Positions 60,001 to 64,000 of a stretch of DNA of 64,000 nt are shown here, one piece after another. Each line of letters starts with the position of its first letter. The stretch's first letter is position 1. Made by a program: the position numbers. The stretch comes from Escherichia coli (GTDB lineage Bacteria > Pseudomonadota > Gammaproteobacteria > Enterobacterales > Enterobacteriaceae), in the NCBI RefSeq assembly GCF_024502345.1, contig NZ_JALDNN010000003.1; one strand, written 5' to 3'.

Positions 60001-63000
60001 TTCACTACAGTTATTCGTCCTTCCGTTCAGCGTGATAAAATATACAAAAACGTAGAGGTAACCCATAAAAGTAAAAGAGCTTATAGACCAGCTTAAAAGG
60101 CTCGACCCGGATGCGTATGTAGTAGTTGCTGGATTTGAAAACCAGTGTACTGGACACGTGGCTGAAGCAGATACCATTAAAGAATGCATGACAATTCCTG
60201 TACGAGCGGACAGCATGTCAGGTGACCGTACGCTTGCAAAAGATGGATCACCTTCAGTCTAGTTGAGGGGGGGAGATGACTACCGCACGGAATACTTCGT
60301 TAGTGCAATAGACGACACGGATGAATTGGCCTAATTATACGAATTGCCAAAAAACTCTCTTATTGTCAATTGGGGGTATGGGCAATTCATATTGATTGCC
60401 AAATATTTTTTGGGTATTCGGGATGTCCTAACAACAGGATTTGCCGAATACCCTATTTTTTTGCCAAATATTTCGTCATTCTAAGTCGAGATCCAGGCCG
60501 AATATCTTTTAATCTAATCCACTCAATAGACAGATTCTGGTGGGATACTTATTGTGTACCGTCGTATTAAACCCACTTAACCGCTAGGGCGTCACGTTGT
60601 CCTGTCTGCAAGCCGAGGCAATTTCCCCTTTAGCCAATGACCACGGTGCCTGCTGGTCGGGTACCGTGGGATTTAACCCCCATAATCGCCAGACCATGGA
60701 GGCAAGCTGGTCGGGTACCGTGGCATTTAACCCCCTTAATCGCCAGGCCATGGGGAGGCTGGTCGCGTAGCGTGGCATTAAACCCTTTAATCGCCAGGAC
60801 ATGGGGTCATGCTGGTCAGGTACCGTGGTATTTAACTCCCTTATTCGCCAGACCATGGGGAATGCTGGTCGCGTATCCTGGCATTTAACCCCCTTAATCG
60901 CCAGAGCATGGCGGGAAGCTGGTCGGGTACCGTGGGATTTAACCCCCTTAATCGCCAGACCATGGAGGAAAGCTGGGCGTGTCCCATGGAATTTAACCCC
61001 CTTAATCGCCAGACCATGGAGGAAAGCTGGTCGTGTCCCGTGGCATTTAACCCCCTTAATCGCCAGGCCATGGGGAGGCTGGTCGCGTAGCGTGGCATTA
61101 AACCCTTTAATCGCCAGGACATGGGGTCATGCTGGTCAGGTACCGTGGTATTTAACTCCCTTATTCGCCAGACCATGGGGAATGCTGGTCGCGTATCCTG
61201 GCATTTAACCCCCTTAATCGCCAGAGCATGGCGGGAAGCTGGTCGGGTACCGTGGGATTTAACCCCCTTAATCGCCAGACCATGGAGGAAAGCTGGGCGT
61301 GTCCCATGGAATTTAACCCCCTTAATCGCCAGACCATGGAGGAAAGCTGGTCGTGTCCCGTGGCATTTAACCCCCTTAATCGCCAGGCCATGGGGAGGCT
61401 GGTCGCGTAGCGTGGCATTAAACCCTTTAATCGCCAGGACATGGGGTCATGCTGGTCAGGTACCGTGGTATTTAACTCCCTTATTCGCCAGACCATGGGG
61501 AATGCTGGTCGCGTATCCTGGCATTTAACCCCCTTAATCGCCAGAGCATGGCGGGAAGCTGGTCGGGTACCGTGGGATTTAACCCCCTTAATCGCCAGAC
61601 CATGGAGGAAAGCTGGGCGTGTCCCATGGAATTTAACCCCCTTAATCGCCAGACCATGGAGGAAAGCTGGTCGTGTCCCGTGGCATTTAACCCCCTTAAT
61701 CGCCAGGCCATGGGGAGGCTGGTCGCGTAGCGTGGCATTAAACCCTTTAATCGCCAGGACATGGGGTCATGCTGGTCAGGTACCGTGGTATTTAACTCCC
61801 TTATTCGCCAGACCATGGGGAATGCTGGTCGCGTATCCTGGCATTTAACCCCCTTAATCGCCAGAGCATGGCGGGAAGCTGGTCGGGTACCGTGGCATTT
61901 AACCCCCTTAATCGCCAGGCCATGGGGTGGCTGGTCGCGTAGCGTGGCATTTAACCCCCTTAATCGCCAGGCTATGGGGAAGCTGGTCTCGTAGCGTGGC
62001 ATTTAACCCCCTTAATCGCCAGGCTATGGGGAAGCAGGTCGCGTAGTGTGGCATTTAACCCCCTTAATCGCCAGGCCATGGAGAAGCTGTTCGCGTAGCG
62101 TGGCATTTAACCTCCTTAATCGCCAGGCTATGGGGAAGCTGGTCTCGTAGCGTGGCATTTAACCCCCTTAATCGCCAGGCTATGGGGAAGCAGGTCGCGT
62201 AGTGTGGCATTTAACCCCCTTAATCGGCAGGCCATGGAGAAGCTGGTCGCGTAGCGTGGCATTTAACCCCCTTAATCGCCAGGCCATGGGGAAGCTGGTC
62301 GCTTAGCGTGGCATTTAACCCCCTTAATCGCCAGAGCATGGCGGGAAGCTGGTCGGGTACCGTGGCATTTAACCCCCTTAATCGCCAGGCCATGGAGGAA
62401 TGCTGGTCTCGTACCATGGCATTTAACCCCCTTAATCGCCAGGCTATGGGGTAATGCTGGTCGGGTACCGTGGGATTTACCCCCCTTATTGCCACATCTA
62501 TGGAGTGATCCTGCTATGTCGGAAGATTGGTATTGTTGATACTTAAGAGGCTTTTGGAAGACTTCAATGAACTGCCAATTGAAATTCAATAATGCAGATA
62601 TTCCAAAATCTAAGAAAAGAATACAGAACGTTAGCGTAATAATAGAATTAAGGTTACTATTAAACGCATAACGCTAAAGTATACGCATTATGCGTAAAGT
62701 TTACGTATATACGTTTAATTTCACTATTTAGGTAAAAGGGATCGGAAGAGAATGAATCTAATTGATAAGATCGCCCTTGTCGGTCAACGCATGAAGAGCG
62801 AGCAGATCTCTCTGAAAGAGTCATTATTGGTCTCTTCGAGGGTTTCGGTATCGGATGATAGTGTAGACGGTGTTGATCGCCTAATCTATAACCACTGCTT
62901 GAATAAAAAAAATCTGTCAGATTTTTTTGGTAAATCTCGCGTAACTTTTAACAAAATCTTAGCGGATCTTGAAGAAAAAGAACTGGTTGGTGCTCCTATC

Positions 63001-64000
63001 TACCAGAACAAAAACCATCTCTATACCCGCTGGGATGTCCAGAAAATAATGGATGCTCTGAACTATCCTCGATATAGCGACTACTACTGTAGCCGTACAA
63101 TCGTAACGCAGAACCATAAGGGTGGTACGGGGAAGAGTACAACTTCAGGCGTTCTTGCAGTTGCGGCAGCACTTGATTTGCATCTAAACGCGCGAATACT
63201 GTTGATCGAATGGGACCCACAAGGGTCTATTGGAAGCGGGATGATCCAGAGCGTAGCGGAAGATGATGTTTTCCTGACTGCTATTGACGCCATCTTAGGG
63301 GTTTACGAAGAAGACTCAGATTACAGAAAATATCTTGATTTAGGGTACTCGGAAGAACAAATTATTGAAGGTATGCCTTTTTCAACACACCTTCCGAATC
63401 TTGATGTTATTACCGCATTCCCTACAGATGCACGTTTCAAAGATAAATACTGGCAGTGTTCCAGAGAAGAACGAACTGAGTTATTACTACGTTTTAAAGA
63501 GGTAATCCTGCCGGTCTTGAAGAGCAAGTACGACCTGATCATTATCGATACTCCACCAGAAGATTCGCCAATCACATGGGCAGCGGATGAAGCTGCTGAT
63601 GGCATTTTGGTTGCCGTTTCACCTCGTGAGTATGATTATGCCTCAACAACTGATTTCATGTTGACGCTCAGTGAGCGATTCAAACAATCGCCGAGCAAGG
63701 GCGAAAATCTAAGCTGGTTCAAAGTGTTGGCAGTGAATGTCGACGATAAGAGTCCCTATGAAAAGATTGTCCTGGATAAACTGGTAAGGACAGTGCAGGA
63801 ACTCTTTATGTCTGCAAATATCAAAAACTCAGAAGCGTTTAAAGCCGCAGCTTCTAGGGGTAGAACCGTATTGGATATTAAAAAATCAGAAGAGCTCTGC
63901 TCTCCCAAACAGCTTGATGTTGCCGAAGAATCCGTGATGGCGGTCTACCAGCAATTTATTAATGAGATTAAGAGTTTTTCAGTGAAGCAAGGGGGTAATG

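Follow-up and report, generated by a model that had tools for sequence, protein, structure and literature searches.

How is the parA gene at the end of this stretch controlled, and to what kind of partition system does it belong? The window, by which we mean the whole 64,000-nt stretch of Escherichia coli DNA analysed here, ends in a ParA reading frame that is preceded by small palindromes and a repeat array (Table 1). From sequence alone, the original prediction took this frame for a type Ia parA under autoregulation, which together with the array would define a partition locus inside the transfer region. The reading we prefer, with a probability of about 0.75, is that the region is the 5' end of an R27-type Par1 operon, in which a weak promoter would drive parAB and ParA would repress it via three operator boxes (O1-O3).

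Table 1. Coordinates of observed and predicted features of the par region in the window
Feature	Position	Strand	Basis and remarks
trhC (TraC-type conjugation ATPase), 893-aa ORF	56303..58984	+	ORF; annotated trhC in R27
Second, smaller block of the same repeat as the main array, 4.6 units	59604..59850	+	TRF, core scan
Main centromere-like array (34.6 units, unit length 51-54 bp) with core ATTTAACCCCCTTAATCGCCA in every unit	60652..62488	+	TRF
Predicted -35, TTAGCG	62631..62636	+	TTRGCN in eight lineages; 90% identity versus 56-58% in flanks
Predicted -10, TACTAT (TACAAT/TAGAAT in relatives)	62655..62660	+	TAnnAT invariant in eight lineages
Putative operator box O1, conserved half-site AACGCATAA	62663..62671	+	87% identity in six lineages; lies at about the predicted transcription start
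Putative operator box O2, perfect 15-nt palindrome TACGCATTATGCGTA	62682..62696	+	92% identity in six lineages
Putative operator box O3, TACGTATATACGTT (12-nt palindrome 62703-62714)	62702..62715	+	80% identity in six lineages
Shine-Dalgarno-like GGAAGAG	62744..62750	+	Sequence, ahead of parA ATG
parA coding sequence	62752..64000	+	Translation; 416 of 417 codons, stop 5 nt past window edge
Predicted N-terminal long helix (residues 3-25), counterpart of type Ia ParA N-terminal helix	62758..62826	+	AF2, Foldseek
Predicted winged helix-turn-helix (residues 44-102), putative recognition helix 63-75	62881..63057	+	AF2 secondary structure
Deviant Walker A motif KGGTGKST	63118..63141	+	Translation; conserved in homologues

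Translation confirmed that the frame opened by the ATG at 62752 (+) runs unbroken off the window. In plasmids encoding an identical protein, the gene comprises 417 codons and its stop overlaps parB by ATGA. There parA is intact, so that a frameshift or stop just beyond the edge, which would have made it a pseudogene, is not found, and parB is recovered as expected. The gene had been described as truncated; the window edge indeed cuts it, but just one codon plus the stop is missing. It had also rightly been described as missed by the ORF track, because the ORF lister leaves out frames running off an end. The parA product is identical to WP_001048870 and one residue off R27 ParA, and its N-terminus MNLIDKIALVGQRMK is common to homologues. 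At the DNA level, parA is 99.8% identical to parA (R0020) of R27: three nucleotide differences were counted in 1521 bp, all of them coding and causing one amino acid change (L306I), and the upstream control region is identical. More than 200 IncHI1 plasmids match the parA region with 99.9% DNA identity; of the 293 plasmid records retrieved by megablast, 217 reach at least 99%, these being IncHI1 plasmids from Salmonella, E. coli and related bacteria.

Since trhC lies upstream and, in R27, parM and transfer genes come after parB, the par locus is situated inside Tra2, which supports the predicted position of a partition locus within the transfer region. The order trhC - repeats - parA - parB and the control region are as in R27 Par1. 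Near identity and the same gene context as R0020/R0019 in Tra2 identify the locus as the already known R27 Par1 partition module, whose parA is already characterised. R27 Par1 (parA/R0020, parB/R0019) was reportedly published as a partition module by Lawley & Taylor in 2003 (J Bacteriol 185:3060). Both partition genes are highly expressed at 25 and 37 C independently of HtdA (PMC7366339), which fits a dedicated parAB promoter. A passage of PMC4489591 that refers to Lawley & Taylor 2003 names the type I module as the major stability determinant, and in the literature consulted Par1 holds this role for IncHI1 plasmids. The operator/promoter map is not annotated in database records examined, and no description of operator or array was found in the literature searched (the original Lawley & Taylor 2003 lies outside that search). 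With the partition system already known, the new detail here appears to be just the map of operator and promoter; what the analysis adds overall is a comparison of predicted promoter, operator boxes and centromere core. Two literature hits were discarded: an "incC" stability paper, which concerns the RepFIA replicon, and "Par1" matches in PMC9410318, which are plasmid names (pAR1xx) irrelevant to this locus.

We wondered which class of ParA proteins the gene product belongs to. The deviant Walker A motif occupies residues 123-130, of which K123, G124, G125, G127 and K128 do not vary among 33 homologues, and domain search returned Pfam AAA_31 and CbiA. Among PDB sequences, the best match is Vibrio cholerae ParA2 (E 3e-33, residues 66 to 396 aligned), followed by P1 ParA (E 8e-9) and likewise P7 ParA. 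An AlphaFold2 model built from the 33 homologues (pLDDT 84, pTM 0.87) predicts that a long helix (3-25) at the N-terminus is joined by a disordered linker (27-41) to a winged helix-turn-helix, behind which the ATPase domain follows. The winged part consists of helices 52-59 and 63-75, a wing at 83-91 and helix 93-102, with pLDDT of 85-88 over this stretch. When the model was compared with PDB structures by Foldseek, full-length alignment was obtained only to ParA2, P1 ParA and P7 ParA (about 410 columns, TM 0.72-0.76); type Ib and other short ParAs, such as Soj, delta and McdA, align over about 290 columns of 416 residues.

P1/P7 ParA thus shares the N-terminal helix, winged helix-turn-helix and Walker ATPase with our protein, at about 19% identity in the structural alignment. 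The closest solved relative is ParA2 of V. cholerae chromosome 2 (PDB 7NPD/7NPE/7NPF; 24% identity, TM 0.75 across 411 columns that take in the N-terminal domain), which, unlike the window ParA, is chromosomal and acts with dispersed parS2 sites. The SopA model NF010259 matches weakly (E 5e-7; 28.9 bits versus a family cut-off of 725). Type Ib ParAs have about 210-300 aa and no N-terminal DNA-binding domain; in these systems the centromere-binding protein is the repressor. Assignment to type Ib (pB171, TP228, pSM19035 delta) was rejected on account of the length of 417 aa, the Walker A motif at residue 123 and structure matches spanning just about 290 of 416 residues. On the other hand, typical traits of type Ia are present: the KGGxxK[ST] Walker A motif, an N-terminal extension of about 100 residues with predicted helix and winged helix-turn-helix, and a large ParB partner directly downstream (seen in identical plasmids, outside the window). 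The centromere position downstream of parB, typical of P1, P7 and F, is not observed here, a trait that is not strictly defining. Judged from its sequence and predicted structure, ParA is a member of type Ia (the class of P1 ParA, F SopA and Vibrio ParA2), and the original assignment, made from the N-terminal extension and KGGTGKST, agrees with the fold search as well.

To compare control regions, sequences upstream of parA were taken from an IncHI1A-like plasmid, pKOR-e3cb, two IncHI2 plasmids, a Plautia symbiont plasmid, Buttiauxella and a metagenomic contig, and from a second clade comprising IncHI3/pNDM-MAR-like plasmids, Providencia, Xenorhabdus, Serratia symbiotica, Photobacterium and Vibrio. 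In the window, 33 copies of ATTTAACCCCCTTAATCGCCA (up to 3 mismatches) were detected where none is expected by chance. All are on the plus strand and upstream of parA, between 59658 and 62441; elsewhere in the R27 sequence covered (1-50000 and 85000-180461) there is no copy. No other part of the 51-54-bp unit is conserved as well as this core. It is kept in relatives with a repeat period of 52-56 bp or 249-250 bp, and the second clade possesses a related core, AACAACCCCGTTGTTCGCA. Within ATTTAACCCCCTTAATCGCCA lie TCGCCA, identical to the box B hexamer of P1, and ATTTAAC, which resembles box A (ATTTCAC in annotated P1 parS). ParB as read in identical plasmids (335 aa) carries the P1-type ParB domain PF08775 and shares 27.5-28% identity with ParB of P1/P7 across 87-91% of its length. 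Since the P1-like boxes of the core come together with a P1-type ParB, the array is supported as a candidate ParB-binding centromere. The original claim that the array and parA define a partition locus is supported, the locus being R27 Par1.

Further, we examined the 262-bp intergenic spacer preceding parA, which is AT-rich (34% GC). The two perfect palindromes that had been noticed there proved exact. The first, ACGCATTATGCGT at 62683-62695, extends to the 15-nt perfect palindrome TACGCATTATGCGTA of O2, and the second is the 12-nt ACGTATATACGT within O3. A third palindrome, CGTAAAGTTTACG (62693-62705), interlocks with them, being formed by abutting arms of the other two; the palindromes sit 38-70 bp upstream of the parA ATG. 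Four perfect palindromes whose arms measure 6 nt or more lie in the spacer, compared with a mean of 0.24 in 5000 dinucleotide shuffles, only 2.8% of which reach two or more. The 64-kb window holds a single match to each of the degenerate patterns ACRYATNATRYGT and ACRYATATRYGT, against 0.03 expected, and neither was found in R27 beyond the par site (1-50000 and 85000-180461, with the window standing in for most of the remainder). A wider ParA regulon was rejected on the same grounds of uniqueness.

Centres of O1, O2 and O3 are spaced by 19.5 bp, roughly two helical turns, and Tandem Repeats Finder reports a 20-bp period. Identity to the window was scored in the six lineages having the window's box type. 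The three boxes and the -35 hexamer (Table 1) are conserved above the DNA between and around them (0.44-0.58), which is comparable with third codon positions of parA (0.43-0.72). The 10 nt directly following O1 are 44% identical. Among lineages, half-sites vary as ACRYAT. The GCGTAA half-sites originally described are present in two copies, but they are not independent: the copy at 62634 overlaps the predicted -35 and that at 62692 is the right arm of the first palindrome. The putative functional operator unit is the TACGYAT inverted repeat rather than GCGTAA. A 23-nt perfect palindrome within parA (62906-62928) was also considered as a site and rejected, since conservation of the peptide KKNLSDFF accounts for it and synonymous changes in other lineages break it.

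The same boxes travel with parAB on unrelated backbones (pKOR-e3cb, the Plautia symbiont plasmid and IncHI2). Because they accompany parAB on non-IncHI backbones, they are likely to belong to the cassette's own regulation. In the second clade the corresponding position is taken by another palindrome, GTGCATTNNAATGCAC, nested in TTGAGCG...CGCTCAA arms, which overlap a good promoter (TTGTAA-17-AATAAT). Within the putative recognition helix, residue 64 is N in proteins associated with GAGCG-type arms and V in those associated with TACGCAT boxes. This protein-site co-variation is suggestive, the independent lineages being few.

Neither promoter nor terminator emerged when 62400-62900 was scanned by strict sigma-70 and terminator criteria. 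A weighted promoter scan, whose top match is the annotated Ppar of P1, yielded TTRGCN and TAnnAT separated by 18 nt, a pair positionally conserved in eight lineages. In the window, consensus match of the predicted promoter is weak (3/6 and 4/6), and its proposal rests on positional conservation. Transcription is thus predicted to start near 62667, within O1, so that O1, O2 and O3 would all fall within the ~50 nt at the 5' end of the leader. In P1, too, the annotated ParA operator spans the region from promoter to start codon.

The analysis shows identity and intactness of the gene, its fold class, and that the boxes exist, are unique and are conserved in evolution; the promoter position, ParA as the binder and repression by binding are inferred. 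Transcription would most likely start at the weak promoter. ParA dimers would bind TACGYAT half-sites of O1-O3 through their helix-turn-helix, thereby repressing parAB. If P1 is a guide, the repressing form would be ADP-bound ParA helped by ParB. ATP-bound ParA on the nucleoid would segregate plasmids, stimulated by ParB bound to the direct-repeat centromere just upstream. The small palindromes are therefore seen as most likely the sites where ParA represses its own operon. The autoregulation originally suggested gains from phylogenetic footprinting and from the parallel with the P1 par operator, and it is still deduced from sequence and analogy.

The strongest competitor, which we consider unlikely, is that ParB is the repressor, either through recognition of the palindromes or because it spreads over the promoter from the neighbouring array. 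Silencing of genes close to their own centromeres by P1 ParB and F SopB is a textbook precedent, along with the type Ib centromere-binding protein acting as repressor, and the array of 33 ParB-type cores ends at 62488, about 140 bp upstream of the predicted -35. However, the TACGYAT palindromes share nothing with the array core, spreading leaves sequence-specific conservation of three boxes unexplained, and ParA has in its predicted structure the additional DNA-binding domain with which type Ia proteins bind operators. ParB could still contribute as corepressor or by spreading, even dominantly.

Even less probable is that the boxes serve another plasmid or host regulator, such as a transfer regulator or nucleoid protein, and so tie partition to conjugation. 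The idea draws on the location of the locus within Tra2 between transfer operons and on the low GC content of the region (34%), but expression of parA and parB is neither thermoregulated nor HtdA-dependent (PMC7366339), the same boxes occur with parAB on plasmids without the IncHI transfer backbone, and motifs absent elsewhere from the window and the R27 sequence covered do not belong to a regulon. Should the predicted promoter be correct, transcripts would include the boxes, which might then act as leader hairpins affecting translation or stability of parA mRNA. We regard this as very improbable: the leader folds at -15.2 kcal/mol versus -15.5 for shuffles (z = 0.10) and has no Rfam match, loops of 0-1 nt are unable to form hairpins, and half-sites drift independently in several lineages. 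Least credible of all are chance features of AT-rich intergenic DNA: a single palindrome with 6-nt arms does arise in 21% of shuffles, but four are present where 0.24 are expected, and the boxes are conserved at 80-92% against 44-58% in neighbouring bases.

Repression by ParA, as preferred here, is a routine extension of the P1/F paradigm without new mechanism. The P1/P7 parOP operator is one long imperfect inverted repeat, whereas three short phased palindromes are found in the window. In P1/P7, parB is followed by the centromere, a single parS of ~80 bp with an IHF site, unlike the 2.9-kb direct-repeat array upstream of parA. The F system SopA-SopB-sopC, also of type Ia, has a tandem direct-repeat centromere and SopA autorepression, with SopA binding short direct CTTTGC repeats; sopC sits downstream of sopB, whereas the array of the window precedes parA. 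It is a tentative and rather doubtful proposal that the IncHI-type Par1 family forms a distinct type Ia architecture, marked by a kb-sized array of P1-like box A/box B sites, all in one orientation, immediately ahead of the par promoter, by three phased ParA boxes within the transcribed leader, by one recognition-helix position (V64/N64) that would switch operator specificity among plasmid lineages, and possibly by joint control through ParA binding and ParB spreading.

IncHI1 plasmids bring multidrug resistance to Salmonella Typhi, and the map of predicted promoter, putative operator boxes and centromere core offers testable targets for plasmid curing and incompatibility approaches and for separating lineages by partition specificity. 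One difference concerns R27 itself: its Par1 has 23 centromere cores, compared with 33 in the window plasmid.

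The centromere-like array upstream of parA contains more copies of the putative ParB-binding core in the window plasmid than in R27 (33 versus 23). The extra copies make up a 320-bp higher-order repeat, present in 5.8 copies with 93% match, and this organization suggests that the array has recently expanded through unequal recombination. Sequence without repeats, about 800 bp in length, divides the array into a small and a large block.

Positions of features in the window, in R27 (L003) and in the records of pSE81-1706 and the S. Typhi P-stx-12 plasmid (L001 and L002)
Feature	Record	Position
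Tandem repeat of 20-bp unit	window	59084-59122
Non-repeat sequence within array	window	59851-60651
Centromere cores compared	window	60652-62488
Centromere cores compared	L003	3787-4929
Single-base difference from pSE81-1706	window	62725
Perfect 23-nt palindrome inside parA	window	62906-62928
Segment upstream of array	L001	2299-2996
Segments upstream of array	L002	1868-2565; 4709-5821

The second clade of the ParA family (IncHI3/pNDM-MAR-like plasmids, Providencia, Xenorhabdus; L008-L011, L015 and L017) has a different predicted operator palindrome upstream of parA. Its putative centromere core, AACAACCCC(G/C)TTGTTCGCA, also differs from that of the window. A copy of this core is located ~120-200 bp upstream of parA in both L015 and L017, and a degenerate copy is found at this distance in L011.

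The palindrome AAAAAAATCTGTCAGATTTTTTT inside parA was considered as a site of its own and rejected. The sequence codes for a conserved peptide, KKNLSDFF, and in other lineages synonymous changes disrupt the symmetry, so the palindrome is a by-product of coding.

Base-by-base comparison over 1521 bp with pSE81-1706, the one record with an identical ParA so compared, revealed a sole difference. It falls in the parA leader between the predicted operator box O3 and the ribosome-binding site, where the window and R27 have T and pSE81-1706 has A.

In pSE81-1706 and the S. Typhi P-stx-12 plasmid, IS1, IS421 and a betT/DUF2254 segment are found upstream of the array, so that trhC is no longer the direct neighbour of the par locus. 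A short way downstream of trhC, the window carries two tandem copies of the unit AATATATAGCCCGGATTAAG; the same two-copy repeat is present in R27.
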